From IMG/VR virus record IMGVR_UViG_3300009177_000029, positions 1 to 41,063 of that record: a DNA stretch of 41,063 nucleotides; one strand, written 5' to 3'. The first letter of the stretch is position 1. Each line of letters begins with the position of its first letter. Source of the stretch: a virus. Lineage: Duplodnaviria > Heunggongvirae > Uroviricota > Caudoviricetes. Under the pieces are notes generated by a model that worked only from the letters and a program-made list of their open reading frames with translations, had not been told where the DNA came from and searched no databases. The translations under genes and the position numbers were made by a program. Below are positions 3,817 to 20,357 of the stretch, piece by piece.

Positions 3817-5012
3817 ACATCCCTCAGAACGTCAAAGATATCGTGCAGTGTCTCCACAACAATGGATACGAAGCATTCATTGTTGGCGGCTGCGTGCGTG
3901 ACTTGCTTCTAGGCAAGACGCCAAACGATTGGGATATTACGACGTCGGCAACGCCACACCAGGTGATGGGTCTGTTCATGCGATCTATTCCAACCGGCAT
4001 CGACCACGGAACAGTCACAGTGCTCATGAAGGGTGAGCACTACGAAGTGACTACCTTCCGCGGAGAGGGTGCATACTCGGACGGTAGACGTCCGGATTCT
4101 GTGCGCTTTGGTGTGCCACTCCAAGAGGACTTGGCTCGCCGAGACTTCACGATCAACGCCATCGCCATGAACCCAATCACAGGCGAAACGTATGACCCGT
4201 TCAATGGCACCGAGGATCTCAACAAGCGAGTCGTACGCTGTGTCGGGAATCCACTAGAGAGGTTTGCTGAGGACGGCTTACGTGTCCTTCGCGCCGCACG
4301 GTTCTGCGCCGTGTTGGGCTTCTCATTGGATCCCAAGACTGAGGCGGCGATTCACTTCAACATCGAGACCTTCCAGAAGGTTTCTATGGAGCGAGTCTAT
4401 GCCGAGTGGCAGAAGCTGCTGACGAAGGCTGAGTATCCTTCGCGTGGTTTCGAGATCATGCAGCGCACTGGAATCCTTGAAGCTACCTGTCCTATGTTCG
4501 GCTTCGAACAGGCCAAGGAAAACTTCATGTACGCGATGGATGCCATTGACGAGCAGAGGCGCGATTTCGTGCTTCGACTTGCGTCACTCTTCCACTACGT
4601 GCGATTCACGCCTGTGCAGGTTGAGACGTGGATGCGCACATTCAAGGCTTCTAACGAAGTACGTACACGTGTCGTGCATCTACTCAACTGCTACAACCCA
4701 TGTGTCAACAACACGCCAGAAGGTTGGCGACGCTGGGCAAGCAAGGTCGGACGTGAGCACTTGGACGACGCGCTAGCACTCTACTGGACGCGTTCGACGG
4801 GAAAGGTTGTCCATGGAATCGTGGATAGTACACCCTTGTCCTTGAGCGAGCTTGCCATAAACGGCAACGACGTCCTGTCGATGGGCATCCAACCCAAGGA
4901 CGTCGGTAGATATCTTCGTGAAGCATTGGACAAGGTTCTTAGTGATCCTAGTCTTAATACTAAGGAAGACCTAACTATTCAGCGCTGTGGATTTGGTATC
5001 AACCAAACGTGA
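3813..5012 (+). CDS. cca: tRNA nucleotidyltransferase (class II CCA-adding enzyme family)
   Basis: VGGCVRD, DWDITT, EVTTFR, EDLARRDFTINA, EDGLRVLRAARF, SMERV. Start set at ATG 3813 from the ATGA overlap. Confidence 0.92.
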   Translation: MNIPQNVKDIVQCLHNNGYEAFIVGGCVRDLLLGKTPNDWDITTSATPHQVMGLFMRSIPTGIDHGTVTVLMKGEHYEVTTFRGEGAYSDGRRPDSVRFGVPLQEDLARRDFTINAIAMNPITGETYDPFNGTEDLNKRVVRCVGNPLERFAEDGLRVLRAARFCAVLGFSLDPKTEAAIHFNIETFQKVSMERVYAEWQKLLTKAEYPSRGFEIMQRTGILEATCPMFGFEQAKENFMYAMDAIDEQRRDFVLRLASLFHYVRFTPVQVETWMRTFKASNEVRTRVVHLLNCYNPCVNNTPEGWRRWASKVGREHLDDALALYWTRSTGKVVHGIVDSTPLSLSELAINGNDVLSMGIQPKDVGRYLREALDKVLSDPSLNTKEDLTIQRCGFGINQT

Positions 5013-6795
5013 AGATGACACCGCGACGCATGCGTTCAAGCGCAATGTTGCAGTAGTTCCACGAGTGAGCAAAGTGCGGGTCGCCACCTGAGTAAATCCA
5101 CTCATGGCGACCTTCACCCGTTTCCTCGTTCGTCACGTGGAAGTGCTTCACTAGACGCATGTACATGCTTTGGGCACGACGCATCACAGCTTCGGGCTCC
5201 AACAAGCGGGTCTTCTCGTTGTAGCAGATCTGCACCAAGCGGTCGGGATCTGGGCAAATCACTTCCTGCTTAGCCCAAGCACCGAGAGCGATGTCGAGCG
5301 ACAGGTAGCGACTAAGTGCACAGTAATATTTGAACTTGAGGTGAGGACCAGCCTTCTTGATGGTGATCTTCGTCTTTGGCTTGTCGGACCACAATACAGG
5401 GTCCTTGCCTTCCGAGGAGTAGAACGCAGCGAATGCACGTCCTGGGAACTCCTGACAGAACTCAAGCACCATGTCGTAGTTCGGCATTGAGTCGATGACG
5501 CACAACTGCACCTTGAACTCTTTCATGAGTTCACGCAAACGCTTGAACGGTGTGACCTTCTTGCCAGCTTCCATATACGCAGGGTTGTCTGCTTCGATAA
5601 TCTCTACATGTCGGATTCTCTTCCTTGAGTCCTTCATGTCAGCGATCGTCACGTATAGGTAGCCGCCTCCTTGATCTACACCCATCGCGCAACCAGAAGC
5701 CTTTCCAGGCTGTGCCCATTCGAGCATCGGGTCGACGCACTGGTCAAGCTGCGCCTTGGTAACGCCACGGTTCTGTTCGTCAATCCACGGCAAGCCAAGT
5801 GACGCGTTCATGAACTCGGCCTTGTTGGTCGTACGGTTGTACGTGTTCCACAAGTCCTTAAGAGGAACATACTTGGAGTTTGCACAGAGAGCGGACACAC
5901 CAAAGGTCGTGTAGTCAGCGCCAGGATTGTGCGCAACGTAACGGCCGTTCTGGGCGTCATGGATGACGTACTTGCACTTTGGGCAACGCAAGTAGAGCTT
6001 GCCACGCTTCTTGTCGTCCACAACACAGTCAGGAAAGCTACGAGCGAGGTCACAGCCATCAGGGCAGCCGCACTTGCTCATCCAAATGTGTTGTGTACCC
6101 ATCTGGAAACGTGCGTCAATGTCAGCGTCCGGGAGACCGCACGTTGACATGAAGATCTTCTGCTTGTATGGACTGTGCTGGATACGATACTGCGCCTGAT
6201 CGATTTCTGCGGGTGAGCATAGACGCACCTCGTCGAACGCGATGAAATCGAGAGGCACGGAGTCCTTGCTTGCAACACCGCCAAGGTGGAACAAGTAGAA
6301 GGAACTCTTACCGATCTTACGCAAGCCGAGCTTGTCGGTATGGTCGATTGTGCCGTTCAGCTCTGCAATCGAATCTAGGATTGGTGTGAGACGGTCCTTA
6401 GACAAGTTCTCAACACCTTCCTTCGTTGGGAAGTACAAACCTCCCTTACGCCCCTGGTGCGTGTGCAGCCAGTGGATCATACGCAACAACATGTACGTAG
6501 TAGCGCCGAGCTGAGCTGCCTTGCGCCAAACGATTTGCAAATCGTCACACATGTAGATGGGCAGCAGATAGCGGTGAGAATCGAAGTCGATTCTGTTACC
6601 ATCGATTTCTACGTTGGAAGTCTGTGTCCAGAGCGTGAAGCTGTCATTGCTTAGATGCGTCAAGTCATCCAGCGTGATGTCCTCTGGCTTGATCTTCTTC
6701 GGCAGGCGTACAATGTGTGGAAATCCGCCTACGGGTGCAGCATGTGCTGCATCCCAATCTGGATCTGGTGGCAGTGTCGTATAGTCAACACTCAT
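4999..6795 (-). CDS. Terminase large subunit, lambda gpA-like
   Basis: Walker A RKAAQLGAT, Walker B IAFDEV, motif III MST, Cys ribbon (CGC..C / CPKC), N..LGLPW, RNase H-like GVDQG, IDS, DPHFAH. Confidence 0.85.
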   Translation of the reverse strand: MSVDYTTLPPDPDWDAAHAAPVGGFPHIVRLPKKIKPEDITLDDLTHLSNDSFTLWTQTSNVEIDGNRIDFDSHRYLLPIYMCDDLQIVWRKAAQLGATTYMLLRMIHWLHTHQGRKGGLYFPTKEGVENLSKDRLTPILDSIAELNGTIDHTDKLGLRKIGKSSFYLFHLGGVASKDSVPLDFIAFDEVRLCSPAEIDQAQYRIQHSPYKQKIFMSTCGLPDADIDARFQMGTQHIWMSKCGCPDGCDLARSFPDCVVDDKKRGKLYLRCPKCKYVIHDAQNGRYVAHNPGADYTTFGVSALCANSKYVPLKDLWNTYNRTTNKAEFMNASLGLPWIDEQNRGVTKAQLDQCVDPMLEWAQPGKASGCAMGVDQGGGYLYVTIADMKDSRKRIRHVEIIEADNPAYMEAGKKVTPFKRLRELMKEFKVQLCVIDSMPNYDMVLEFCQEFPGRAFAAFYSSEGKDPVLWSDKPKTKITIKKAGPHLKFKYYCALSRYLSLDIALGAWAKQEVICPDPDRLVQICYNEKTRLLEPEAVMRRAQSMYMRLVKHFHVTNEETGEGRHEWIYSGGDPHFAHSWNYCNIALERMRRGVIFTFG

Positions 6796-6962: not shown

Positions 6963-7204
6963 ACTTGCCTCCAAAGAACCTCACTCTTGGCATAGATTGC
7001 TTCTACAATACCGTCGATGACACGAAGGTAGTAGCACTCATCTGTGCGATTTGATGGAATCTTGAGTTGCTTGATAGGAATCTCGTCCCAGGTTGCCAGC
7101 TTCTTGACCACTGGAACGAAGCCATGCAACTCCATGAAGTCGAGGACAGCAAAGAGTTTGTCGTTCATTGCCTTGAGTTCCTCTGCGGTCACCTCTGTGG
7201 TCAT
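6959..7204 (-). CDS. Hypothetical protein
   Basis: ATGA overlaps on both sides. Confidence 0.65.
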   Translation of the reverse strand: MTTEVTAEELKAMNDKLFAVLDFMELHGFVPVVKKLATWDEIPIKQLKIPSNRTDECYYLRVIDGIVEAIYAKSEVLWRQV

Positions 7205-8064
7205 TCGTCCACCCTCAGTTCTGGATTGGTGTCGCCTGCAATGGACCCTGCGTTAATCACAGGCTTCTTGTCAGTGTCACCCTTGAAGAATCCGGTGTGG
7301 TGGATAGCGATCTGTAGCAAGCCACCGAGTGCTGTGTTCACATCCATACCATCTGCTACACACTTGGTAGTGATAGCATCGATAGACTTCTTGAGAGCTG
7401 GCGTCATCTGAATGAAGACGTGATTACGTCCACCAAGTGGGAACACCATGAAAGAGTTTGGCACGGTCTTGCCATAGCGCTCAAACAAGACGCTGATGAT
7501 GGTGCCAAGGTCGTCGATCATCTTGACCTGGCTTACCTGTTGCTGAGAAGCCACAGCCGAGGCGATGGAGCGCTCTCTTTGCTTCTCTTGTTTGTAGAAG
7601 TTGGAGAATGCTTCGCTATCTTCGAAACCCATGCGTTCCATGATGATGTCGAGACCAAGCTGGTGCTCTGCGGTCAAACGATTGATCTCTTCGGTGAAGA
7701 GCGTACGGTCAATCTCACCGCGAACCAAGTTACGACGCACGAGTTGGATGCGGCTCTCTACTTCGTCCCAATCGTCACGAATGACACATGGGAACTCTTC
7801 CATGCCTGCGGCCTTGCCTGCTCGACGGCGGTGGTTACCGGACACGATGAAGTAGCCGGGTGTTTCGTCACGACGTGGAACGATGATGAGAGGCTCGTCG
7901 AAACCATGTGCCATGATGCTGTCAATCAGCTCTTGGTGCGTGTGCTTCGACTGCTTGTTCGTATTGTTTGGATGGTCGAACAACAACTCATCACGAACAC
8001 GAACAATCTCGTGGATCTTTGGTGCTGCCTTTGCAGCGGGTTCGATAACCTTCTTCTTGGCCAT
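7201..8064 (-). CDS. ParB/Srx N-terminal domain protein
   Basis: HPNNTN, LIDSIMAHGFDEPLIIV, IVSGNHRRRAG. Confidence 0.85.
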   Translation of the reverse strand: MAKKKVIEPAAKAAPKIHEIVRVRDELLFDHPNNTNKQSKHTHQELIDSIMAHGFDEPLIIVPRRDETPGYFIVSGNHRRRAGKAAGMEEFPCVIRDDWDEVESRIQLVRRNLVRGEIDRTLFTEEINRLTAEHQLGLDIIMERMGFEDSEAFSNFYKQEKQRERSIASAVASQQQVSQVKMIDDLGTIISVLFERYGKTVPNSFMVFPLGGRNHVFIQMTPALKKSIDAITTKCVADGMDVNTALGGLLQIAIHHTGFFKGDTDKKPVINAGSIAGDTNPELRVDE

Positions 8065-8065
8065 T

Positions 8066-8881
8066 TCACTTCCCCTTGATGGACTTCAAGAAGTTGCTTG
8101 AATAGCCGTTCTTCTTGACGCCAAATACCCACTTCGAAGACCAAAAGCGGACTTCTTCGACACCGTACGAAACCGCTGTGTTGTAGGCAAGCTGCATAGC
8201 TTCCTGTGCCGTGTGTCCGGCGAACGTCTGGTCGTAGGCGGCCAAACCACAGCAAAGCTTGTGTGTACCCTTGACCTGCTTTGCCAAGTCAAGCGTATAC
8301 TTCTGCATGTTTCCTGGTGCCAACTTCGTGCCCCATAAAACCTCTGCGGTGTCAGTGCGGTTTGCTACTGAGTATGCCTGGGGTAGTAGGCGGTCAACAT
8401 GCGTTGCCAAGTCAGCGTGTGGTCCATTTTCTGTGTGTGCAGAGAACGTGGTCAGCTCAACACGGATGTTGTGCTTTACACGTAGACGCTGCATGATTGC
8501 TGCCAGGTAGTCTGACGCGAGGTGCAGTGTGGCAAATCCGGAGACCCTGCTTGGTAGCCAGTTGCCCTCGGTGTCAAACTCAAGCGCGGCACATCCCGAA
8601 GCTGTGATGTACGCGGAAATGTGAGCTTCCATGTCATCGAGATACTTCTTGCTGGGTTCGGGCCACAACGTGAGAGCCAGCTCAACATCACGTGAAAAGG
8701 CAAGACCGCGGATGGTCTGCAAGTCAGTCGTGGTGTACATGGGGTTGAACCCATTGCCGATAGACTCAAGCATGATACCGGCAGTTGTGAGCCCGTGCTC
8801 TGGGAAGTGGTCCCAATACTGCGCGGTTAGTACCATGGATGGCGGATCATCAATCCAGATTCCCTTACGTGTCATTTGCAA
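8066..8881 (-). CDS. Glycoside-hydrolase-like TIM barrel (GH18/GH25-like DxE motif)
   Basis: Alternating beta/alpha pattern; KGIWI first strand, ALEFDTEG, LLPQAY, terminal VRFWS. Confidence 0.5.
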   Translation of the reverse strand: MQMTRKGIWIDDPPSMVLTAQYWDHFPEHGLTTAGIMLESIGNGFNPMYTTTDLQTIRGLAFSRDVELALTLWPEPSKKYLDDMEAHISAYITASGCAALEFDTEGNWLPSRVSGFATLHLASDYLAAIMQRLRVKHNIRVELTTFSAHTENGPHADLATHVDRLLPQAYSVANRTDTAEVLWGTKLAPGNMQKYTLDLAKQVKGTHKLCCGLAAYDQTFAGHTAQEAMQLAYNTAVSYGVEEVRFWSSKWVFGVKKNGYSSNFLKSIKGK

Positions 8882-9836
8882 CCTCCGAGAGTAGAGATAC
8901 TATCATACTCTCTTTTCCTAGTATACCTACATGTGTGGGCAATGCCACAAGTTTCTTCGCCAAACCTTCCGCTACGGGATAGCTTGGCTTCTCGACCCAA
9001 CGCCTGTTGATGTCAGAGAGCATGTGTAGCGGATACACAGGCTTCATGACACTGATTTCGTGGCTGTGTAGGTGTGCCACTACACGGTCAGCATTGTCTA
9101 CACGGACAATGAAGTACGGCCATTCCGGACTGGAAATGAACGGAAGAGCGTAGTTCTCTTTGAGTAGTTCAATGTAGCGGTTGGCTACGATGGTCTGCTG
9201 GCCTCTACGAACACCCAATGAAGGATCTGTAGATAGGCGTTTCATAGCATACGCGGCGAGAGCATCATTCAAGTTGGCTGCCAAACCAAGTACGCCTGCT
9301 CTAACCATCTTGAGTTCTCGAACCTGCTGTGAAAACTTGTGAAACACAAGGGCACCTGTCCCTACCAGGGGTGCTAGGTCGAAAACGTTGAATGTGCAGC
9401 AAAGGTTTGACTCAATGTCTTCGTGCGGCGGAAGACGGCTGTCCAAGATGGTCGGCAGCTCTGTTGTCAACGCCAGTAGCTCCGGGTCCACGTCTTGGCC
9501 TCCCGGACGGCCTAGGATGACCACAGCGGCCTTCACCTCAGTCAAGACCTCACCCAGCACCACCGGGTCGATCTGTAGCGTCTGAGGGCGGATATCGAGC
9601 AGCAACGGGTCACCGCCACCTCGCAGCACAGCCGAGATAGTGTCTGGGGATGCAGTGATTGGGAGAATCACCGGAATCATGTGCGAACGTGAGCCTAGTA
9701 CCTCAAGGATGGCTGAAATGGCGTTTTGATAGCTGTTGAACGCCACAGCACTTGGTCCGAAGTGTTGCTCAAGCTTCGCTTGTTCTACAGTACCTGCGAA
9801 GTCGTTTCGACCGTCCCAGGTGTCAAATGGAATCAT
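8865..9836 (-). CDS. DegT/DnrJ/EryC1/StrS (ArnB-like) aminotransferase homologue, apparently lacking the PLP lysine
   Basis: AVAFNSYQNAI, VILP.TA...AVLRGGGDPLLLDI.PQTLQIDP, VYPLHM, YPVAE.LAKKLVALPTH. The expected SF...K segment reads FDLAPLVGTG. Confidence 0.75.
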   Translation of the reverse strand: MIPFDTWDGRNDFAGTVEQAKLEQHFGPSAVAFNSYQNAISAILEVLGSRSHMIPVILPITASPDTISAVLRGGGDPLLLDIRPQTLQIDPVVLGEVLTEVKAAVVILGRPGGQDVDPELLALTTELPTILDSRLPPHEDIESNLCCTFNVFDLAPLVGTGALVFHKFSQQVRELKMVRAGVLGLAANLNDALAAYAMKRLSTDPSLGVRRGQQTIVANRYIELLKENYALPFISSPEWPYFIVRVDNADRVVAHLHSHEISVMKPVYPLHMLSDINRRWVEKPSYPVAEGLAKKLVALPTHVGILGKESMIVSLLSEVANDT

Positions 9837-10051
9837 CGTACAACTACTCCGGTGAACCTGTGAACAAGTTCTACTTTACCAGTGAGCTTTCGTACGGTGT
9901 TCGCATACCTGGGATCATATGCGCCCTTGTCGTGATTGATCTCAATCACGTAGCCCTTCTCGGTGTCCGCTTCGATTGCCTTGATGATGCGAACACCGTC
10001 ACAATAGGCGTGATGAGCATCGCCTTCAACTGTACCTGCTATGATCTTCAT
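9833..10051 (-). CDS. Hypothetical phage protein
   Basis: ATGA overlap; IEADTEKGYV motif. Confidence 0.65.
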   Translation of the reverse strand: MKIIAGTVEGDAHHAYCDGVRIIKAIEADTEKGYVIEINHDKGAYDPRYANTVRKLTGKVELVHRFTGVVVR

Positions 10052-10054
10052 GGT

Positions 10055-10273
10055 TCACTCCGATGGGATCACTATACGACGACACTCAGGACACTTCCAG
10101 CCCTTTCGTGTGCTACGTAGCGGGCCGTCGTACCCGCATTCATCACACCCTTCTTCTTGCTCAAACAAGGACTGCGTAAAGCCTTCCTCGGATTCCGTAC
10201 TGCTAGGGGCGCGATTCCAAGAGTTCCCTGTTTGGAACCCTTCCGAATCAATCAGTGCTGCTTTTCTTGCCAT
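10055..10273 (-). CDS. Small zinc-ribbon protein
   Basis: CDECG...WKCPEC. Confidence 0.7.
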   Translation of the reverse strand: MARKAALIDSEGFQTGNSWNRAPSSTESEEGFTQSLFEQEEGCDECGYDGPLRSTRKGWKCPECRRIVIPSE

Positions 10274-10274
10274 G

Positions 10275-10466
10275 TTATATCCTTACCCAGAGGTCACGAA
10301 CCTCATCCATCTTCATGATATAGCCGTGTTTTGCCAAGTTAGCAAGCACTTTCTGTGCCGTGTGCTTATCCAGGCCGGTCAGCCTGCAAATATCGCAGTA
10401 CGCGAGTGGTAGCAAATCGTATACTCGTTGACCGTGCTTGATATCAGCCAGCGCCTTGGTCTTCAC
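10275..10466 (-). CDS. Small winged-HTH-like protein
   Basis: DICRLTGLDKHTAQKVLANLAKHGYI. Confidence 0.65.
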   Translation of the reverse strand: MKTKALADIKHGQRVYDLLPLAYCDICRLTGLDKHTAQKVLANLAKHGYIMKMDEVRDLWVRI

Positions 10467-11148
10467 TGTGAATCCTTTCGTAAGAACCTACTTCGTGTTC
10501 GATGGACTTGATCATGTCGATGTTGCGACGGTGATGAACAGAGGCACCGTGCTTCTTCAATGCGTCTGAGTGTGCCGGAGTTGGATAGCCTTTGTTGGTC
10601 TTCCAATCAAACTCCGGATAGTTCTTGTGTAGCTCACGCATATGTAGGTCACGAGTTACCTTCGCGACAACACTAGCAGCACCGACTGCACACACGAACT
10701 TGTCTGCCTTCGCAAAGCAGATCTGTGCGCCCTTGTATCCCTTGACTTGGTTCTTGCCGTCAATGACAAGAACAGACTTAGGATACAATGCCAATGCTTC
10801 GTTTGCAGCCGTGAGGAACAGGTTTTGGAGCACCGGACCTGGCCCATAGAGTTCCAAGTCGCTTGGTGTTGCAGCTACCACGTTCAGGTATTCGGCTGTC
10901 TCGTGAACGGTGACGTAAGCCTTTTGCCTGGACGCCTCAGTGTAAGACTTGCTGTCACGAATACCTCGGTTGGTGTAACCCACCTTGTATACTGCACAGC
11001 CGACCATCACAGGTCCGGCAATAGCACCCCAGCCAACTTCATCCAATCCGATGATGTATTCGGCCTTTGTAGTTGCTAGGATTTCACTCAGCATATTTCT
11101 GCGCTTCTTGAACTTGCCATGCGGGATCTTGAGTCGTCTCAAGCGCAT
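10444..11148 (-). CDS. rnhB: Ribonuclease HII (start 11148 or 11094)
   Basis: GLDEVGWGAIAGPV, IRDSK, VIDG, KAD...AASVVAKVTRD, NKGYPT..H. Confidence 0.92.
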   Translation of the reverse strand: MRLRRLKIPHGKFKKRRNMLSEILATTKAEYIIGLDEVGWGAIAGPVMVGCAVYKVGYTNRGIRDSKSYTEASRQKAYVTVHETAEYLNVVAATPSDLELYGPGPVLQNLFLTAANEALALYPKSVLVIDGKNQVKGYKGAQICFAKADKFVCAVGAASVVAKVTRDLHMRELHKNYPEFDWKTNKGYPTPAHSDALKKHGASVHHRRNIDMIKSIEHEVGSYERIHSEDQGAG

Positions 11149-11150
11149 CG

Positions 11151-11471
11151 TCAAGCCAAACCCCACCCGTTCTTGTGATCCGAGTTGTATTGTGCGAGGT
11201 CACCGCCAGTGACCTTTCTACCAGCAAGATAGATGCACACAACTCGAACCTTAGGTGTGATTGGAGGATCACCCTGACGGTCGCCTACGATGGTGCAAAG
11301 CTCCATCTGAATGGAACCCACCTTAGTTCGTGCAGCGTCTCTCGTCGCGGTCCTGCCCTTTGTTTCTGCTTCGTAGTAGGTGTACGGACCGTCCATCACA
11401 GAATCCTTGTCCACACGCAAGTAAAACTCACGTAGTGGTCCTGGCGTACTGTTGCTCGGACGGTCTGTCAT
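11151..11471 (-). CDS. Hypothetical protein
   Basis: Fills the gap in the operon. Confidence 0.65.
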   Translation of the reverse strand: MTDRPSNSTPGPLREFYLRVDKDSVMDGPYTYYEAETKGRTATRDAARTKVGSIQMELCTIVGDRQGDPPITPKVRVVCIYLAGRKVTGGDLAQYNSDHKNGWGLA

Positions 11472-11762
11472 TCATGCCTCTACAAGAACGCGGGTCACCT
11501 TGCGCTTCTCGACGTTCACTTCGGTCACACGAAACTTGCCGTTTTCAGCATACTCATTGCTGATTGCCGTGAGAGTCTGCTGCAACTCGCTCTGACGTAG
11601 CTGAGCCAACGTCTGTGCTGAGTTCACACGCTCCGAAGCCAACGAAAGAGCAAGCGCCGCGTTTTCAGCGAGGTCAACGGAGAACACGCCGTCACCCTTT
11701 GCCTTGTCACCAGGCTCTGAATACTTCTTTTCTAGATCCGTTTCCATCTTCTGCTTTGCCAT
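11472..11762 (-). CDS. Hypothetical coiled-coil protein
   Basis: GGAGG SD before ATG 11762; promoter upstream. Confidence 0.7.
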   Translation of the reverse strand: MAKQKMETDLEKKYSEPGDKAKGDGVFSVDLAENAALALSLASERVNSAQTLAQLRQSELQQTLTAISNEYAENGKFRVTEVNVEKRKVTRVLVEA

Positions 11763-11781
11763 TAGAAACCTCCGATGCTCG

Positions 11782-11809
11782 ACATTAGCATGCAGCAAAT
11801 CATTGTCAA
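11782..11809 (-). promoter_or_regulatory. sigma70-like promoter TTGACA-N16-TAATGT with extended -10 TG
   Basis: Minus strand ttgaca atgatttgctgcatgc taatgt in an intergenic gap. Confidence 0.7.
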
Positions 11810-11813
11810 ATGA

Positions 11814-14800
11814 TCACTGTGGAGCTTCGATCACTAGACGCATTAGGTCTGCACTTGCTGCCGAAGCTGTGGAGCCGTTATTGACCCAGCAGTGTGCGGC
11901 CAAGAAATCTGTCGTAGCTGGAAGATCGGTGTTGACAGTAAGCTGCTTCTTCGAACCACCAACAACGTCTACGACGTAGAACTGCACGTCGCCGCCGTTT
12001 GGTGCTGCGTAGATCCAAATGTCAAGCACAACAGTAGCCGAACGTGCCGAGATACCTGTGCTTGTCTTCGTTGCAGTACCCGAACCGTCATTCACCATGA
12101 TCTGGATGCTAGAATCCGCCGAGTCGTAACCTACGCCGATGATGGACGTCATCGAGCTTGGATCAGCGTTAGACAACGCAGAGCCGCTCTTTGCAAAACC
12201 AACAAATCCGCGCTGGTTTGCAGTAACTGTCACGTTAGGTGCCCAGCGTGCGTGGAACAAGAATCCACCAAGGCCAGCACCGCTACCGCGCCATGCAAGG
12301 GTTTGGTTACCCGAATAAACTTCGGCACTAGTACCTGCGGAAGCAGAGGTAGCCATGTTGATGCGGTTTGATGCCGTACGGAAGTTCGTCGTTGCTTGCG
12401 CAGGCGTCGTAATGGTGCCAGCGGTGCTCGTGAAGAAGCCCTGCTGGTCGGTGCCGCTCTTTCCCGGAACTACCCAAGCCTGGAAACGGTCATGCATTGC
12501 GCTTCCAAGCATGATGTTGCCAAACTCAGGCATGGACTTCTGCAAGAATGGAGGACGGCCATTGCTGGTGTCTACTCCAATCTTGTTGTGTCCAGAAGCT
12601 GGCGTAGACAAAGCCGAAGTTGAGATATCGACCTGAGGCACGAATGGAACGCCAGCAGAGTCGATGTATGACAGCTCGACGCTGTTGGACTGGAAGCTGA
12701 TGAACTTACCACCACCAGAACCGAACACAGGCGTACCCGCACCGGATGCACCAAACATGTTGAACTTCATGCTTACGAAGCTCGAAGAACCCGTCTGGTT
12801 GACATAGTGACCAACCTGCATACCCGTCTGAGCGATGCTTGCACCCGTGAAGGTGTTGTTGGCGAAGATGACGCCAGGAACGCCACCAACTGTGAATGCT
12901 GGAACACTTCCAGTTGCCTTCGCTCCGGTAACTGCCATGCTCTGAATGTAAGCGTAGCTGTAGCTCAAGCTGTCGAGACCAAGAGAAACAGTCAAATCCT
13001 GTCCAGGGTGCAACGCAGTGCTTGCCCCGTTTGCGCACACTACAGCCGTGCCACCAGAAATCAAGCTAGTTTCCGAGTCCGAGATACTTGTGAAGCCTAG
13101 ACCATCGCCAGGACTTCCCATGAACGCATATGCTGGGATGACACTAAGTGGGCCGAAACCACTACCTGTAGCCTGTACTTGACCATCTGAGTTTACCAAG
13201 TACACGGTGGTTGCGTTATTGATATACAGCGCAAACTTACCACCGTTAGATCCGAATACAGGCGCACCCGTGCCGCCAGCACCGTGGAGAACGATTTCCT
13301 CTGCGACGAATACAGAGCCACCCGTCTGGTTGACGTTGTACGCCATCTGCGTACCAACCTGTAGACCAGAAGAGGCTGTGAAGTTTGTTGCGTTTGAAAT
13401 GGCGATAGAAGGTCCCGCACCCGAAGAAACGTTTCCGTACACGTTCATGCCTGAGTTGGTTGCGGCCATGCCGATACCAATGCTTGGTTGAGTAAAGAAA
13501 ATACCCGAACCGTTCATAGCAAAGATGCTTCCACCAAACGAGAAGTCGATGCGCGACGCATTGTCAAAGAAGCCAATGTCGAGTGCTGGACGGAAGAAGA
13601 ATCCGTTCTCAGCCATCACAGAACCCGCAGTGTTCACAAAGAACTGCGACGTTCCGTTGGTCTGTGCATCGATGAACTTACCGCCACCAGAGCCGTAGGT
13701 TGGGGAGCCGGAGAACCCAGCGCCCTTAGCGTTGAGTTCCAACATCGTGTGGGCAGCCGTGCTCGTCTGTGCTACTGCGGCAACGATCTGCAACGCTCTC
13801 TGAGTTCCAGTAGACGCAGAGAAGTTGTTCGTGTTCGCGAATACGAATGGAGCATCTGTTCCGGTAGTTACCGAACCGCTCATTGCAATGTAGCCGTTAG
13901 TCACAGCCGACTTGAACTGCTGCGTGCTTACGAGACCAGAGATTGAAGAACTGATCTGCCAGTATTGTGTACCCAGACTCAACGTCGTGATCGTACCTGC
14001 ACCCGAACGGAATAGTCCGGTCGTAGGATCGCTTACAAAGCGGTAACCAAGGTCACCCGCCTGTACTGTGCCATCACTGACGAGCTTGAACACCGACGTT
14101 GCGTTAGACACTACGTCAAAGATCAAGCCACCACCAGAACCGTAGACAGGGGCACCAGAACCACCTGAGCCATGCAAGACAAACTGATAAGCTGTCCAAG
14201 ACGCAGAAGACGTCTGGGCAATGTTCATCTGTTGCTTGATGCCATACTGAGCTGTACCAGCACCGCCAGTGAAATCACCGTTGTTCAACAAAAACAACGC
14301 AGGATTTGTGCTGTTGGTACTACCAACCACAGCGCTGGTGAAAACTTGCGTCCAACGGTATGAACCCGTGCCTAGGCTAACGCTATCATCTACACCTGGA
14401 ATGAATCCGTTTTCGTTTGTCGAAGCTGCGGCGATTAGAGCACCGCCAGACCAAAACGAAAGATCCTCAGCATCAGACGGTGCACTACGGTCAATACCTG
14501 TGCCTGGATGCGAAATGAATGAGATACCCGGAACGCTGCTCGAACCCGCAGCAAAGCGCGCCTGGAAGTCACCAGTGCTGCCATCCAAGAACAACATTTC
14601 ACCACCGCTGCCACTGCTGACGAACGCCATTGACCCGGTGGTGTTGAGGTAGATGCCCGTTGCGGTGTCGAACTTGAACGAGTATGCAGGAACGCCAGCG
14701 TTGCCGTTCTGAGCCAAAACCTGTGAGTTGGCGAAACGAACTACGTCACCAGTAAGTGCAGTGATTTCTACACCACCAGAGGCGTAGAAGATACCTGTGG

Positions 14801-15308
14801 TACCGTCTGTCTGGAATGTGTAGGCTGGGCTTCCTGCTGAGCCATCCTCTGCGTAGTAGCGTTCACTGTAGACACCACCCCAACGGAAAGATGGACCACC
14901 AAGAGAGCGGCTGTTGTCAATGTCAGGTAGAATATCTCTACCAGCAGTGATCTGTACACCACCAACACTGAGGAAGTCGATACCACCACCGGCTACTACG
15001 ACTGCACCAGCATTGTAGTAGAGGCCAGTGTTTGCGTCACTAGCAAAGGACAGTGATGGAGTACCGACGCTGCCGTCTGGTAGAACCAACTTGACGTTTG
15101 TAGTCAAAGACGAACCAGTGAGGATTGCTAGGCTAGTCTTGATGAGCTTTCCACTTGTTCCATCGAATACAGCAATGGCGTTGTCTACACCGCTGCCTGG
15201 ACCTTGAACATAGCTGCTCAAATCCGGGGCTGGCGCACCGCCAATCAATACTGGAACTAGATTTCCAGTAGGTACGTCACGTACCGATGCGAACTGTGGA
15301 ATACTCAT
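11814..15308 (-). CDS. Tail fibre / receptor-binding protein (1164 aa, Gly/Ser/Thr-rich)
   Basis: Repeats PsxsFxxDxxTGiy, PxxDxsxSLGxxSxrw and GxxGxPxyGSgGGkF; beta-rich C-terminal domain. Confidence 0.8.
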   Translation of the reverse strand: MSIPQFASVRDVPTGNLVPVLIGGAPAPDLSSYVQGPGSGVDNAIAVFDGTSGKLIKTSLAILTGSSLTTNVKLVLPDGSVGTPSLSFASDANTGLYYNAGAVVVAGGGIDFLSVGGVQITAGRDILPDIDNSRSLGGPSFRWGGVYSERYYAEDGSAGSPAYTFQTDGTTGIFYASGGVEITALTGDVVRFANSQVLAQNGNAGVPAYSFKFDTATGIYLNTTGSMAFVSSGSGGEMLFLDGSTGDFQARFAAGSSSVPGISFISHPGTGIDRSAPSDAEDLSFWSGGALIAAASTNENGFIPGVDDSVSLGTGSYRWTQVFTSAVVGSTNSTNPALFLLNNGDFTGGAGTAQYGIKQQMNIAQTSSASWTAYQFVLHGSGGSGAPVYGSGGGLIFDVVSNATSVFKLVSDGTVQAGDLGYRFVSDPTTGLFRSGAGTITTLSLGTQYWQISSSISGLVSTQQFKSAVTNGYIAMSGSVTTGTDAPFVFANTNNFSASTGTQRALQIVAAVAQTSTAAHTMLELNAKGAGFSGSPTYGSGGGKFIDAQTNGTSQFFVNTAGSVMAENGFFFRPALDIGFFDNASRIDFSFGGSIFAMNGSGIFFTQPSIGIGMAATNSGMNVYGNVSSGAGPSIAISNATNFTASSGLQVGTQMAYNVNQTGGSVFVAEEIVLHGAGGTGAPVFGSNGGKFALYINNATTVYLVNSDGQVQATGSGFGPLSVIPAYAFMGSPGDGLGFTSISDSETSLISGGTAVVCANGASTALHPGQDLTVSLGLDSLSYSYAYIQSMAVTGAKATGSVPAFTVGGVPGVIFANNTFTGASIAQTGMQVGHYVNQTGSSSFVSMKFNMFGASGAGTPVFGSGGGKFISFQSNSVELSYIDSAGVPFVPQVDISTSALSTPASGHNKIGVDTSNGRPPFLQKSMPEFGNIMLGSAMHDRFQAWVVPGKSGTDQQGFFTSTAGTITTPAQATTNFRTASNRINMATSASAGTSAEVYSGNQTLAWRGSGAGLGGFLFHARWAPNVTVTANQRGFVGFAKSGSALSNADPSSMTSIIGVGYDSADSSIQIMVNDGSGTATKTSTGISARSATVVLDIWIYAAPNGGDVQFYVVDVVGGSKKQLTVNTDLPATTDFLAAHCWVNNGSTASAASADLMRLVIEAPQ
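12705..14175 (-). repeat. Four diverged protein-level repeats in the fibre gene (core GxxGxPx(Y/F)GSxGG(K)F)
   Basis: HGSGGSGAPVYGSGGGLIF, GAGFSGSPTYGSGGGKFI, HGAGGTGAPVFGSNGGKFA, FGASGAGTPVFGSGGGKFI, about 150-175 aa apart. Confidence 0.75.
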
Positions 15309-15733
15309 AGTGCGATTGGGATGAGAACGACGCTAAAACCCATGTCAGCAGGTGAACCTGCTGTGTTGTACGTCTTGACATTGATCTGCGACGTAGGTGG
15401 TGGGCCTGCGTAGTCAGTGGTCACGAATCCTGGGTCCTTGATGTTGGCTAGAGGAATCTTGATTGTGGAGAACGTGATGGGCGTAGCCAAAGTCACAGCG
15501 TACTCACCAGTTCCGGTGTGAACTACACCGGAGATTCCTGGTGATGCAATGTCAACAGTACCGTCAGACTCAACGATAGCACCGTCCGGGTTCTGGCCGA
15601 TCAATGCCGATTCTGCGCCAGTGTCAGTCTGTGCATAGACCTTCTTGTCAGTCTTTGCGTAAACACGTACGTGATTCGACGCTGGGATTGCTGGGGCTGT
15701 GCCCGTCTCTAGATCAATCACTGCTGCTGCCAT
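15305..15733 (-). CDS. Putative virion/tail-associated protein
   Basis: VYAKTD, HTGTGEYAVT and ADMGFSVV beta-sandwich pattern typical of tail proteins; ATGA overlap with the fibre gene. Confidence 0.6.
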   Translation of the reverse strand: MAAAVIDLETGTAPAIPASNHVRVYAKTDKKVYAQTDTGAESALIGQNPDGAIVESDGTVDIASPGISGVVHTGTGEYAVTLATPITFSTIKIPLANIKDPGFVTTDYAGPPPTSQINVKTYNTAGSPADMGFSVVLIPIAL

Positions 15734-15740
15734 GGTAACC

Positions 15741-16589
15741 TCAAATCACATGTAGTGAACCGCCCGCTGCGATGTTCAAGACACCGCCAGCGTCGATGTT
15801 GAGTACACCATCTACAGTGTACTGATAGTTTGCCGGGACTGATACTACCTCAGAAACGAGAATGTGGTCCTTGATCAACCCGTCGAAATCTGGTGCCCAA
15901 CTCGTTCCATTCCAACGCAAGAGCTGTGCCACTATTGGTGGTGTAGCAGAAACAGCACGTCCTTGCAACCCAACAACCGAAGGATTTGGATAGGTTCCGG
16001 ACAGATCGCCGCCTGCTGGACCACTTGGTGTGGACCCGGAAATGAGCGAAGGATTCACTCGACCAGTAGCTGGATCGGTCATGACGATGCGGCTAATGGC
16101 TCCTGCAAACGTCGTAATCGCGTTCTGTACAGCCCAAATGCCATCCTCAATCTCTTCGTAAATCAAGTCTTCATTTGTAGCCCAGCCACGCGGGTTGATG
16201 TTGCTTGGGAAGCCTAGTCCTGCGTACGTCTCGTTGTCTTCGGTTGTTTCACCCGCAGCCTGGTAGCGCCAGCCAAGTGTTCGCGTTGCGAACGTGCGAA
16301 TAGCGATATAGGATGAGGCGTTATCACTTGGGGAGCTGGACCCGTTGACCTGCAAGGACACAGTATACGTACCCTTTACATCCGGCGTGAATGTAAAGGA
16401 CGAACCTGCGCCAGTAGTACCACGAACTAGCGCCGAGCGAATAGGCACATCCACGAGAGTCCACAGGTATGTGGTCTCGGAAGTGTTGTTCGTACACGTC
16501 ACTAGTTGGGAGACAACACCGTCAGAACGAGCTTTTCCGGCTGTTCCTGCGGGACGGGTCGCCTGGTTGATCAGAATAGACGCAGGCAT
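15741..16589 (-). CDS. Putative virion protein with an Ig/PKD-like N-terminal domain
   Basis: YLWTL...FTFTPDVKGTYTVSLQVN; GPAGGDLSGTYPNPSV motif; AGGAG SD. Confidence 0.65.
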   Translation of the reverse strand: MPASILINQATRPAGTAGKARSDGVVSQLVTCTNNTSETTYLWTLVDVPIRSALVRGTTGAGSSFTFTPDVKGTYTVSLQVNGSSSPSDNASSYIAIRTFATRTLGWRYQAAGETTEDNETYAGLGFPSNINPRGWATNEDLIYEEIEDGIWAVQNAITTFAGAISRIVMTDPATGRVNPSLISGSTPSGPAGGDLSGTYPNPSVVGLQGRAVSATPPIVAQLLRWNGTSWAPDFDGLIKDHILVSEVVSVPANYQYTVDGVLNIDAGGVLNIAAGGSLHVI

Positions 16590-16598
16590 CAATACTCC

Positions 16599-16624
16599 TA
16601 GGGCTTGGAAGCTTCCAAGCCCTA
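16599..16624. repeat. Perfect 26-bp palindrome TAGGGCTTGGAAGCTTCCAAGCCCTA
   Basis: Identical to its own reverse complement; intergenic; abuts the SD of 15741..16589. Confidence 0.95.
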
Positions 16625-16653
16625 AGTGTACTAGATTCCGAGGTCTATGACAA
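16625..16653 (-). promoter_or_regulatory. sigma70-like promoter TTGTCA-N17-TACACT
   Basis: Minus strand ttgtca tagacctcggaatctag tacact directly before the palindrome. Confidence 0.55.
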
Positions 16654-17365
16654 GTGGCGGATTTGTAGGCTTGTATGCTTCCGTACAGATCGCCGCGTTC
16701 AACATCATGGTACTACCCAACATGGCGAAACCGTGTCCGGCATGGATGTGACCGCAAATGTGCACACGTGGCTTCTTCGTGAGAATCACGTCTCGTAGGT
16801 CCATACAACCCACACGTTCGCCACGAGGCGTGAGATCAAGAGCACCGTAGGCAGGGCCGTGCGTGATGAGAATGTCGAGTCCTTCGGGGATCTTGTCCCA
16901 CTTGGACCTGATTTCCTTGCCTCGCTCGGCATTGAACACCCAATGCTGCTTGAAGAAAGCAGGCGTCCAGGGCGAACCGTAGATGCGGAAACCAAAGCGC
17001 TCAATCTCTTCGTCCTCGATGTATGTCACATCCGGCAACAAAGATTTCCACGTCTCTGGGTCACGTTGTGCCGTGAGGTCATGATTGCCAGCGATACAGA
17101 CGACTTCACCGACCTTGCCACTGTCCTGTAGAGCAAAGCACCAGTTGTTGAAATCCGTGATCTGTGCGTACTCTCCACGGTCCGTGATGTCACCAGCTAC
17201 GATGAGCAAATCACAGTTGGGCACCTGTATTCTATTTTGGTACGAGTGCATGTCCGAGATAGCGCAAATACGCTTCGTCTTCACAGGAAGTTGCGGCGTC
17301 TGTGGCTTGTTGCGCCAAGCTCGTGCTGATTGAACCATGTCGCCCGTCATAGCTTCCTCAAACAT
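16631..17365 (-). CDS. Metallophosphoesterase (MPPED/Rv0805-like calcineurin fold)
   Basis: ISDMH, AGDIT, AGNHD, YGSPWTP, LITHGP, GHIH. Confidence 0.9.
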   Translation of the reverse strand: MFEEAMTGDMVQSARAWRNKPQTPQLPVKTKRICAISDMHSYQNRIQVPNCDLLIVAGDITDRGEYAQITDFNNWCFALQDSGKVGEVVCIAGNHDLTAQRDPETWKSLLPDVTYIEDEEIERFGFRIYGSPWTPAFFKQHWVFNAERGKEIRSKWDKIPEGLDILITHGPAYGALDLTPRGERVGCMDLRDVILTKKPRVHICGHIHAGHGFAMLGSTMMLNAAICTEAYKPTNPPLVIDLGI

Positions 17366-18179
17366 TTCCGCGTGCCATCAGGAAGAGTCCGCTTCGGAGT
17401 GATACCTTAGGCTTCCATTTACCATCAATGCGGAGTCTGTCAAGGGACGGCACCTTCCACCAAGCATGACGCTCGATTGGTTCCACAGTGACAATCTCGA
17501 TGTCCTTCTCGAAGGCATGGCCAACAGACTTGGCTAGGGAGAGAATCTCCACCTGTTCATCTGAGCCGACATTGTAGATGCCTCTGTGACCCTTGAGCAA
17601 GCGCTGTACCAACACGCCGATTGCTGCTGTGAAGTCTTCTTCCCAAAGGAATGTACGGATTTGGCGACCAGGATGGTCAACAAGCAGCGGGTGGTTACCA
17701 CGTGCTTGCTTCATGAACTTGTTGACTACGCCGTGCGTACAGGTAGGTCCGTAGACGTTGAATGGTCGTACGACCACAGTCTTACCTGTTGGTCGCTGCA
17801 CAAACATGTGCTCGGCAAGCAAGGACGTGAGCGGACGCACAGCACTCTCATCAAGAGGCGATGTAATCACGTGTCCTTGCGCTTCATCCATAGGTTCTAC
17901 TTCACGTAGATTCAACGCGTAGTCTCGGTCTGAGTACACGCTGGATGAAGAAAGAAGAAGCACGGGCCAATCCTTGGACTGTACCGTGCGGAGTTCGTCG
18001 AGTAGTTTGTATGCGGCATCGCGGTTGTGTACCTCTGCTCCGGCTAGCACGAATACAGGGTTGTCTTGATCGACCTGCGAAGGGTCAACGACGAGGGCAA
18101 AGCCCTGCGAGATCAAGAAACCAATCGTGATCGGAAGAAGTACGTGGCGACCTACTACGACGAACTGTGTACGCTTCAC
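17358..18179 (-). CDS. NAD-dependent epimerase/dehydratase homologue (UDP-glucuronate decarboxylase-like), degenerate
   Basis: LLSSSSVY, VVRPFNVYGP, RQIRTFLWEED, IYNVGSDEQVEILSLA, WKPKVSLRSGL. No GxxGxxG or YxxxK. GTG start at 18179 with AAGGA SD. Confidence 0.75.
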   Translation of the reverse strand: MKRTQFVVVGRHVLLPITIGFLISQGFALVVDPSQVDQDNPVFVLAGAEVHNRDAAYKLLDELRTVQSKDWPVLLLSSSSVYSDRDYALNLREVEPMDEAQGHVITSPLDESAVRPLTSLLAEHMFVQRPTGKTVVVRPFNVYGPTCTHGVVNKFMKQARGNHPLLVDHPGRQIRTFLWEEDFTAAIGVLVQRLLKGHRGIYNVGSDEQVEILSLAKSVGHAFEKDIEIVTVEPIERHAWWKVPSLDRLRIDGKWKPKVSLRSGLFLMARGNV

Positions 18180-18262
18180 TTTTTGAGTTCCTTTTCTGCA
18201 CACTTGCAGTGTAGGACAATCTTCTTGCACTTGTCGCACTTAGGCAAGATCTTATCGGTCAT
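18176..18262 (-). CDS. 28-aa Cys-rich microprotein (not in ORF track)
   Basis: MTDKILPKCDKCKKIVLHCKCAEKELKK*; overlaps both neighbours (GTGA coupling). Confidence 0.6.
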   Translation of the reverse strand: MTDKILPKCDKCKKIVLHCKCAEKELKK

Positions 18263-18752
18263 ACAACCAGCTCTCTTTCATGGTCGAGAACAGCACAGAC
18301 AACGGGAAGATCACTACACAATCTGCCGTTCCCAACTGAGTTTCAAAGTATGTCTTCGACGTGGACAACTTATGCCACAGTTCCGGAGTCATGTGCATGC
18401 GACGAACCATTGCGTACAGAGGCGCATGGTTCTTCGTAAACACAAGCAATGGAATCTTCCCCTTCGGTGTTTCCGTCAGGGTCTGTTCCCACCACTTGTG
18501 CATCAAGGTCTTGTCGGACGTGAGCATCTGCTCCAACGTCCAACCTTCGACCTTCTTGCTTTCCACACAGAACGGGAACGATTTGTCAGGCGTCACGAGG
18601 TCGCCGCATGCGTTCCAGTCCTCACGAAACTTTGCCGTCGCGAAGCCACCTGAAAGTGGCGTACGTGCAAAGTCCGCTCCCCACCATGCCGAGAATAGCT
18701 TTGCCAGCTTCCTCTCGGCCGTCTGTCCCTTCTTGCGTCCGTTTACTGCCAT
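18252..18752 (-). CDS. Holliday junction resolvase, PD-(D/E)xK type (T5 D14-like)
   Basis: KKGQTAERKLA, RTPLSGG, GDLV, VESKK, WWEQ, PLLVFTKN. Confidence 0.85.
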   Translation of the reverse strand: MAVNGRKKGQTAERKLAKLFSAWWGADFARTPLSGGFATAKFREDWNACGDLVTPDKSFPFCVESKKVEGWTLEQMLTSDKTLMHKWWEQTLTETPKGKIPLLVFTKNHAPLYAMVRRMHMTPELWHKLSTSKTYFETQLGTADCVVIFPLSVLFSTMKESWLYDR

Positions 18753-18758
18753 TCACGG

Positions 18759-18787
18759 ATGATACGCCGTGAATCACGAACTGTCAA
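18759..18787 (-). promoter_or_regulatory. sigma70-like promoter TTGACA-N17-TATCAT
   Basis: Minus strand ttgaca gttcgtgattcacggcg tatcat ccgtga ATG. Confidence 0.75.
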
Positions 18788-19170
18788 GTCAAATCCCACT
18801 CGGTTTCAACTTCGATTAGCTTGGGCTTTTCTGCCTTTGCTTTCGGAGGGTTGGTGAGCGGCGTGCTGGACACGGATTGGTAACCCTTCTTGATCTTCTC
18901 GCGCATCACGTTCTCAAAGACTTGCATGGCATCGTCCTCAGTGGAGTATTCGCCGAAGCCAGATTGGCCTTGTGTGCCGATCTTGCCCCAACGAGTCTTG
19001 AATGCGTGCGAACGTCCCGTACGACCAGCAGAACCACGGCCGCTGGATACGAGCTTGAGTGCAGTAAGTTCGTAGAACTTGTTCGAGTTCTCAGCTACGT
19101 TCTTGTACTCAAGATACTCACGACGTAGAACCTCGTAGTCAAGTCCGTTCTCTTCAACTAGGTTAGCCAT
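18784..19170 (-). CDS. Stand-alone WGR domain protein
   Basis: SNKFYEL, TRWGKIGTQGQ, EKIKKGY. Start ATG 19170 overlaps the HNH stop. Confidence 0.85.
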   Translation of the reverse strand: MANLVEENGLDYEVLRREYLEYKNVAENSNKFYELTALKLVSSGRGSAGRTGRSHAFKTRWGKIGTQGQSGFGEYSTEDDAMQVFENVMREKIKKGYQSVSSTPLTNPPKAKAEKPKLIEVETEWDLT

Positions 19171-19792
19171 GTTTCTTCCGTGAAGGTGTGAAGGCAACTT
19201 CTTTATGGTCTGTCCAACCGCGGTCAAGACGCTTGTACATTGTGAACTCAGAGACTGAGCAGCGCGGGTCGCGGGACCACTCACTGACTGTCTTAGTCTC
19301 TCCATCAATGGTGAGTTTGACATTTGAGCGAGTATTCTGGTTCTGTTCATAGCGAGTTGCCCAACGAACATTACCTGGCTCGTAGTTGCCGTTTGAATCC
19401 ATGCGCTCAATCGTGTGCTTGAGTGTGGGACGCTTGCCTACCATGAACAGGAAGGCTTCGAAGCTGTCTCGCCACATATCACACACGACGATGCCGCGAC
19501 CACCATAGTTCTTGTAGTCTTTGTTGTTCGGGTTGTGGCAGCGTTGAATCATGTGCACCCAAGTATTGTACTCGGGCGATGCTTTACCGTATGGCGAAGC
19601 GCCATGAGAAGTCTTTGACACGGAGACTGAGCAACGTCGGCACATGAGACTCTTGGCATGCGTCAAGTCATACTTGCGCACTGCCTTGGTCGTACGTCCG
19701 CACGAACAGGTACAGATCACCTTTGTGGTGTCTTTGCTCTGCGCGGTTACGGTCCATGCACCGAACGTTTGCCCAATCGCCAGGTCACTCAT
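19163..19792 (-). CDS. Free-standing HNH-type homing endonuclease
   Basis: CTCSCG, WVHMIQRC, YKNYGGRGIVVC, TIERMDSNGNYEPGNVRWAT. Confidence 0.85.
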   Translation of the reverse strand: MSDLAIGQTFGAWTVTAQSKDTTKVICTCSCGRTTKAVRKYDLTHAKSLMCRRCSVSVSKTSHGASPYGKASPEYNTWVHMIQRCHNPNNKDYKNYGGRGIVVCDMWRDSFEAFLFMVGKRPTLKHTIERMDSNGNYEPGNVRWATRYEQNQNTRSNVKLTIDGETKTVSEWSRDPRCSVSEFTMYKRLDRGWTDHKEVAFTPSRKKHG

Positions 19793-20286: not shown

Positions 20287-20357
20287 GATTATCGCCTCTT
20301 CGGATCCTTGTAACGACGACCACCCTCAGCCTTTTGCTTTGCGGAGTCCAGGACGGC

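Follow-up and report, generated by a model that had tools for sequence, protein, structure and literature searches.

Extended short-chain dehydrogenases/reductases (SDRs) that act on nucleotide-sugars, such as UXS1 and the C-terminal domain of ArnA (PF01370), and the sugar aminotransferases of the DegT family, such as ArnB, PerA, WbpE, NtdA and TlmJ, belong to families that act in consecutive steps. In both, homologs have been described that lack canonical catalytic residues. The DegT-family 3-dehydratases ColD and E1 have no Schiff-base Lys and are still functional, with a His at the Lys position and a preserved site for pyridoxamine 5'-phosphate. The atypical SDRs NmrA, NMRAL1/HSCARG and TIP30 have lost the catalytic Tyr, keep the binding of NAD(P), and have a binding or regulatory role. 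In viruses, conserved dead enzymes often mark repurposed binding functions. One protein of each kind is encoded in the window studied here, i.e. the whole stretch of 41,063 nucleotides (nt) that makes up the first 41 kb of the complete 169,063-bp virus record IMGVR_UViG_3300009177_000029, which has direct terminal repeats:

17358..18179, minus strand: SDR-like protein, of extended-SDR, UXS-type fold, without GxxGxxG and without the catalytic Tyr/Lys (273 amino acids (aa), intact open reading frame (ORF))
8865..9836, minus strand: DegT-like protein, of DegT fold, without a site for pyridoxal 5'-phosphate (PLP) (323 aa, intact ORF, acidic)

The pair consists of degenerate members of two enzyme superfamilies, which are real and widespread core proteins of phages. 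Judged by their sequences they are conserved pseudoenzyme-like homologs, in that they combine kinship to enzymes with the loss of catalytic residues and have been kept under selection. The first-pass annotation of this DNA had described two intact ORFs of consecutive-step families from which the catalytic motifs are missing. The family assignment is borne out by Pfam, by AlphaFold models and by fold matches, and the absence of the motifs by family-wide alignments of 72 DegT-like and 55 SDR-like proteins.

The SDR-like protein shares its fold with UXS1 and the C-terminal domain of ArnA. Its start at position 18179 is supported because the proteins of relatives begin with MKRTQF. In Pfam it scores 37 bits against PF01370 (cut-off 20.9), with a match to profile positions 91-240 only. 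The AlphaFold model predicted on the family alignment (predicted local distance difference test score, pLDDT, 94.0) resembles the extended SDRs GalE, UXS1, RmlB and ArnA with template modelling (TM) scores in the range 0.72-0.85. The best fold match is with clusters of UDP-glucuronate decarboxylases (TM 0.85, root-mean-square deviation 2.4 Å, ~260 residues), and PDB entries 2b69 and 4lk3 as well as ArnA are among the best matches. What sets the protein apart from UXS1 is a Rossmann half from which ~45 residues are absent throughout the family and which has no GxxGxxG. In all 55 family members the TGGxGFIG motif has become G-x-H-x-L-L (V-G-R-H-V-L-L-P in the window protein); the second and third Gly of the NAD-binding loop are gone in 55/55, and bulky residues are found instead. 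In the alignment to human UXS1 the residues T118, E120, Y147 and K151 correspond to S78, S80, R115 and S119, respectively. The catalytic Ser/Thr is therefore kept, as a Ser of the UXS/ArnA type, whereas the Tyr, Lys and Glu are not, and the loss of the catalytic Tyr and Lys extends across the family.

Besides this Ser, the SDR-like protein retains the motifs of the C-terminal nucleotide pocket, namely N141 in FNVYGP (FNxYGP), R175 in GRQIRTF (GRQxRTF; in the form shared with UXS1 and ArnA, GxQxR(T/D)F) and, according to the alignment, K242 at the position of UXS1 R277. In the canonical enzymes these elements line the nucleotide-diphosphate pocket. Compared to UXS1 and ArnA the family has a 7-residue insert and new motifs around the former sugar site, SVYSDRD and DEAxGHVITSPLD, which are near-invariant, and it is found in phage contigs only. 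Residues S77, Y82, D84, R85, E99 and S107 are near-invariant and E123, R138 and R262 are invariant; the invariant polar residues cluster in sequence round the former sugar site. The best score against the enzyme equivalogs of NCBIfam is 33 bits, at a cut-off of 365.

The DegT-like protein matches PF01041 in two partial stretches (53.5 bits, cut-off 19.8), and the model predicted on the family alignment (pLDDT 90.9) confirms the fold-type-I sugar-aminotransferase (DegT) fold with two domains. The model resembles the sugar aminotransferases TlmJ, ArnB, PerA, NtdA and WbpE (TM ~0.8) at 16-21% sequence identity, and the protein shares with them the two-domain fold-type-I architecture and the framework motifs GxxPxxxD, PLH and YPVAE...LP. 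It is, however, 35-60 residues shorter and differs at the positions that hold the cofactor, as was found when 72 DegT-like representatives (50%-identity clusters) were aligned with 18 canonical DegT proteins. The column of the Schiff-base Lys has a K in 17 of the 18 canonical proteins and S, A, T or Q in the DegT-like family (A155 in the window protein). The Thr of the S-G-T phosphate loop, present in all 18 canonical sequences, is replaced by Gln in 57/72 representatives and the Gly by Y, V, Q or H, so that S-G-T reads S-x-Q. Pro or Ser takes the place of the PLP-stacking aromatic residue (canonical F/Y). The Asp that contacts the pyridine nitrogen is found in the window protein (D132) and is kept in 35/72 family members. 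Most positions of the former PLP pocket vary within the family, whereas framework and surface residues are invariant. R50, R72, D81, D153, R179 and R279 are the same in all members. Against the curated equivalogs WecE, ArnB and LegC (NCBIfam) the protein scores 19.5-23 bits, where the cut-offs are 375-631. The family has a median isoelectric point (pI) of 5.3 and a net charge of about -10, opposite in sign to that of the SDR-like family, which is mildly basic. General binding of DNA by the DegT-like protein, an idea that came from its ParB-like and large terminase (TerL) neighbours, was rejected as unlikely in view of this acidity.

The described homologs without canonical residues are thus only partial parallels. 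ColD and E1 have a His that the DegT-like protein lacks, and in the latter the phosphate and stacking residues have gone as well. The atypical SDRs are the nearest precedent for a possible mode of action of the SDR-like protein, although the SDR-like protein has lost the glycine-rich loop too.

Both proteins belong to large families. A word-indexed search returned 45 DegT-like and ~60 SDR-like relatives, all of them metagenomic, with identities down to ~30-40%. An exhaustive hidden Markov model search of 1.84 billion representatives yielded 81 DegT-like clusters (50% identity, E<=1e-30). All 81 representatives have a length of <=350 aa, none is a fusion, and a gap in score separates them from the canonical DegT proteins. 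In a pattern scan of 185,579 genomes of prokaryote species only canonical SDRs came up, and no member of the SDR-like family. Each of the two proteins defines a phage-only family, and in both families the loss of motifs appears, with good support from the alignments, to predate diversification. A fold search of BFVD gave canonical viral aminotransferases only, a protein-atlas feature search gave generic DegT and epimerase clusters only, neither protein is matched by a PADLOC model, and full-text searches of the literature gave no paper on such phage proteins.

In Nei-Gojobori comparisons with the closest relatives, the ratio of nonsynonymous to synonymous substitutions (dN/dS) amounts to 0.116 (DegT-like gene) and 0.109 (SDR-like gene), compared to 0.068 for TerL, 0.074 for the deoxynucleoside monophosphate (dNMP) kinase and 0.080 for RNase HII, all approximate values since dS (0.77-1.0) is near saturation. 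Both genes are under strong purifying selection, and neutral evolution is excluded. The proposal that the pair was co-opted would have been contradicted by a failure of the genes to co-occur in related phages or by neutral evolution of both. Neither was observed: the pair is found together on ~16 contigs, and dN/dS is ~0.11 for either gene.

The two genes occupy fixed positions on these ~16 related contigs, one of which carries a 350-aa DegT-like homolog that is missed by Pfam and that scores 197 bits against the family profile. The gene order is shared by every related contig that has sufficient length for a judgement. It is WGR, PDDEXK_15, SDR-like, metallophosphoesterase plus a variable slot, RNase HII, two to three small ORFs and DegT-like, followed in some relatives by a 270-aa ORF or an HNH gene, and then by ParB-like and TerL. 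In the window the neighbours of the pair are:

18252..18752, minus strand: PDDEXK_15 nuclease (RusA-like Holliday junction resolvase in PHROGs), upstream of the SDR-like gene
16631..17365, minus strand: MPPED2-like metallophosphoesterase (244 aa), all calcineurin-type metal motifs intact
11814..16592, minus strand: variable cassette of a 1164-aa fibre-like, a 142-aa tail-protein-like and a 283-aa PKD-domain protein, neither content nor presence conserved
11151..11798, minus strand: two ORFs (106 and 108 aa) between the fibre gene and RNase HII, no family match
10444..11166, minus strand: RNase HII, first gene of a conserved block that ends with DegT-like, ParB-like and TerL
9833..10466, minus strand: small ORFs of 72, 72 and 63 aa; most of the relatives examined likewise have two to three in front of the DegT-like gene
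8066..8881, minus strand: 271-aa ORF, no family match, 17-nt overlap with the DegT-like gene, found in some relatives only
7201..8064, minus strand: protein with a ParB N-terminal domain, upstream of TerL
4999..6795, minus strand: large terminase (GpA-type ATPase, 598 aa), without intein

The interval between the pair thus holds the fibre-like genes, RNase HII, five small ORFs and the MPPED2-like phosphoesterase, which looks active. In the relatives the content of the slot changes. L002, L015 and L017 lack any large gene in it, and their pair is 1.2-2.3 kb apart without a fibre gene in between. A single 761-aa protein is encoded in the slot of L009, and in other relatives there are three to five large proteins that are unrelated to one another, some of them with beta-helix or SASA domains. 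The fibre cassette is a hypervariable insert between two conserved blocks and not part of a common system. It is because this cassette sits between the two blocks that the pair flanks fibre-like genes here. The flanking of the fibre genes that the first-pass annotation had pointed out is therefore correct for the window, but the cassette is variable and is absent from the three relatives named above. The proposal that the system is tied to the cassette could not be upheld: each gene is anchored to neighbours from DNA metabolism and packaging, and relative G001 has no SDR-like gene. In the latter record (139 kb, 82% complete) the DegT-like gene is in its usual place, a 111-aa unrelated ORF is found at the site of the SDR-like gene, and no SDR-like match was found anywhere in the record. 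In L022 (positions 990-1796) the SDR-like homolog has a single in-frame TAG where the relatives have Glu, whereas the DegT-like gene is open. A nonsense mutation, an error in sequencing and read-through of an amber codon are all conceivable explanations of this TAG. The pair is never adjacent and never fused. Since all core genes of a lineage co-occur, co-occurrence alone is uninformative on joint function, and it is the losses that are informative; that the pair is obligate is possible but unproven. A complex prediction for the two proteins had a score of 0.00 and gave no verdict, and it was counted neither for nor against binding.

A deviating arrangement was observed in L016 / L104 (IMGVR_UViG_3300013128_000008, 41.7 kb), where, unlike in all other relatives, the pair is on opposite strands and ~11 kb apart. 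Either an inversion or a misassembly could account for this.

The setting of the pair is that of a large myovirus. Most genes of the window are on the minus strand and their content is DNA metabolism and packaging: PolA, RecA, gp32-like, SbcCD-like, ThyX, dNMP kinase, dUTPase, CobS/CobT-like, RNA ligase, RNase HII, ParB-like and the GpA-type large terminase. Elsewhere in the genome, in the part from 41 to 101 kb (genome coordinates), a baseplate wedge (55.5-59.3 kb), a sheath (69.5-71.8 kb) and a tail-fibre-like protein (74.5-76.3 kb) are encoded. The main tail module (baseplate and sheath, 55-72 kb) is ~35 kb away from the fibre-like cassette of the window, which represents a second, detached fibre set. 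Among the named phage records, megablast with the region gave no DNA match, tblastn with the DegT-like protein gave no match and tblastn with the SDR-like protein gave canonical epimerases only; TerL and PolA have <=29% identity to any named phage record. That both genes are core genes of an uncultured lineage of ~135-170-kb myoviruses is well supported. The first-pass annotation had found no glycosyltransferase in the window, and this extends to the complete 169,063-bp genome for the two glycosyltransferase families that were searched for, Glycos_transf_2 (GT2) and Glycos_transf_1 (GT1); the sugar nucleotidyltransferase family NTP_transferase has no match there either. As the genome moreover has a single DegT-like and a single SDR-like gene, there appears to be no glycan pathway for the pair to serve.

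With respect to the neighbours, the start of the phosphoesterase gene, which lies downstream, overlaps the stop of the SDR-like gene by 8 nt, and translational coupling of the two genes is probable in the window. The protein matches both MPPED2 (PDB 3rl4; E 2e-49) and, in PADLOC, the candidate defence protein PDC-S10 (E 2.4e-72), and by its sequence it could be a phage cyclic-nucleotide phosphodiesterase. These matches and the overlap together suggest a connection to nucleotide signals. In the relatives the phosphoesterase usually adjoins the SDR-like gene, although the association is not strict: it is elsewhere in L002, missing from the interval in L009 and kept in L018, which lacks the SDR-like gene. 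A role as nucleoside diphosphate-sugar pyrophosphatase was considered and dropped, as the closest relative is MPPED2. The PDDEXK_15 gene is next to the SDR-like gene, or one small ORF away, on every relative contig that covers that side. Similarly, the ParB-like gene is adjacent to TerL, or separated from it by small ORFs only, on every relative contig that reaches there; no small-terminase family was matched among the scanned ORFs neighbouring it, and the ParB-like protein may provide DNA recognition for packaging. Within the cassette, the 1164-aa protein has a weak tail-spike match and a C-terminal domain common to other phages, and it is plausible that the cassette proteins are accessory receptor-binding proteins. 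A promoter and terminator scan of 6.7-19 kb gave counts at chance level.

Three further observations concern the surrounding genes. The TerL proteins of L001 (12645-15503), L002 (11866-14691) and L018 (13850-16078) contain inteins (Intein_splicing, LAGLIDADG) and are 742-952 aa long. In the window, an HNH endonuclease ORF (19163-19792, minus strand; PHROG 374, E 4e-50) overlaps the WGR-domain ORF when the latter is read at its full length (18784-19410). Since the WGR proteins of relatives have 112-152 aa, a more internal start of the WGR gene is probable, with the HNH gene as an insertion. Finally, an amber codon was noted in frame at window positions 20289-20618 in a first reading of the sequence.

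Taken together, we expect, with a probability of about 0.55, that both are non-canonical ligand binders which work without a cofactor and belong to the block for DNA metabolism and packaging. Their ancestry is well supported, with the SDR-like protein descending from a UXS/ArnA-type extended-SDR nucleotide-sugar enzyme and the DegT-like protein from a DegT-type sugar aminotransferase. It is equally well supported by the alignments that the residues for NAD or PLP binding and for catalysis have been lost, which should make the ancestral oxidation/decarboxylation or transamination impossible. As to the mechanism, we infer that both are soluble cytoplasmic proteins in which the inherited fold now serves for binding. 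In the case of the SDR-like protein this is probably the binding of a nucleotide-linked ligand in the retained C-terminal pocket, possibly with a new catalysis, because the pocket motifs and the new polar motifs are strongly conserved. The DegT-like protein is more likely to be a scaffold or a binding partner, because its PLP pocket is mostly variable and its invariant residues belong to the framework or the surface. Both would act in the DNA-metabolism and packaging part, where nucleases, RNase HII, the ParB-like protein and the terminase are the fixed neighbours. Several points weigh against this expectation. The binding role is read from conserved motifs only, and the SDR-like protein has many invariant polar residues where the active site used to be, which would fit a new catalysis equally well. 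A Lys is still found at the canonical Schiff-base column in 2/72 DegT-like representatives, the dN/dS values are approximate, and in the relatives where the genes are 1.2-2.3 kb apart the pair could still be one functional module.

The same polar residues of the SDR-like protein, and the invariant R50, R72, D81, D153, R179 and R279 of the DegT-like protein, would also suit neo-enzymes, in which one or both proteins have acquired a new activity that needs no cofactor and acts on a nucleotide-linked substrate by means of family-specific polar residues. The selection on the pair is comparable in strength to that on true enzymes, in line with such an activity. However, the former PLP-pocket positions of the DegT-like protein are mostly variable, and we know of no chemistry that fits an SDR scaffold without nicotinamide or a fold-type-I scaffold without PLP or its amine form, so that we regard new catalysis as unlikely, though worth keeping in mind. 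Somewhat more doubtful is a matched two-protein system, in which the pair was inherited from an ArnA/ArnB-like or UXS-plus-aminotransferase pathway and acts jointly, as a complex or on one ligand. The consecutive steps of the ancestral families, the presence of both genes on ~16 contigs, their proximity in three relatives (1.2-2.3 kb), the fold matches with ArnB and ArnA and the opposite net charge of the two families all agree with a joint action. Yet common descent predicts co-occurrence for all core genes, G001 has the DegT-like gene without the SDR-like one, L022 has the TAG in its SDR-like gene next to an open DegT-like gene, and the genes are never adjacent or fused. Moreover, ArnA and ArnB are not favoured over other subfamilies, as many fold matches are near-equal and the best sequence matches are with other members. 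We are similarly doubtful, and to the same degree, about a co-opted ligand-capture system, in which the former nucleotide-sugar enzymes bind either a nucleotide-sugar of the host or a nucleotide immune signal, so as to sequester it or to pass it on to a hydrolase, and in which the SDR-like protein may work with the MPPED2-like phosphodiesterase. If true, such a class of phage counter-measures or pool-scavenging devices would have no described precedent.

The first-pass annotation had favoured co-option, and in so far as this means a conserved, selected and co-occurring pair of pseudoenzyme-like proteins it holds; the remodelling of the host surface and the tie to the fibres found no support. 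That proposal has two forms. Either the proteins would be decoys that poison or divert the synthesis of host surface glycans, for receptor shut-off or superinfection exclusion, or they would bind sugars as components of the virion fibres. Since the canonical enzymes are active as dimers, dominant-negative mixing is conceivable, and fibre-like genes do lie between the pair in the window and in several relatives. On the other hand, proteins with 15-21% identity to cellular enzymes that are nevertheless conserved across divergent phages are not expected to match the dimer interface of one host enzyme, the cassette is absent in three relatives, the conserved neighbours are a nuclease, RNase HII, the ParB-like protein and the terminase, and the nucleotide that nucleotide-sugar pockets recognise would not be present on cell surfaces. 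We therefore hold this proposal to be improbable. A shade less probable still is the interception of nucleotide signals, with the SDR-like protein as a sponge for, or as a specificity partner of the MPPED2-like phosphodiesterase against, cyclic-nucleotide or NAD-derived immune signals of the host. The 8-nt overlap, the usual neighbourhood of the two genes, the intact motifs of the phosphoesterase and its matches to MPPED2 (E 2e-49) and PDC-S10 (2.4e-72) point in that direction, but the phosphoesterase is elsewhere in L002, is not in the interval of L009 and is kept in L018 without the SDR-like gene, neither pseudoenzyme matches a PADLOC model, and to our knowledge a sponge with an SDR fold has no precedent. 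Almost no credence can be given to decaying relics of a lost sugar pathway that evolve neutrally. The catalytic motifs are indeed gone, and the SDR-like gene has been lost from one relative and has an in-frame stop in another, but dN/dS is ~0.11, the models are confident and compact, and the frames are open over their full length in dozens of lineages, down to ~30-40% identity.

The variable-slot origin of the link with the fibres implies that the locus should not be annotated as a glycan or fibre-modification module. What we find instead is that two apparently dead enzymes of consecutive steps are core genes in a group of large phages which is widespread and uncultured, and that they are matched by no curated enzyme family. 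With the identity of a ligand or partner, more than 80 protein clusters would gain a function, and it might reveal a new way in which phages handle the nucleotide-sugars or nucleotide signals of their hosts.

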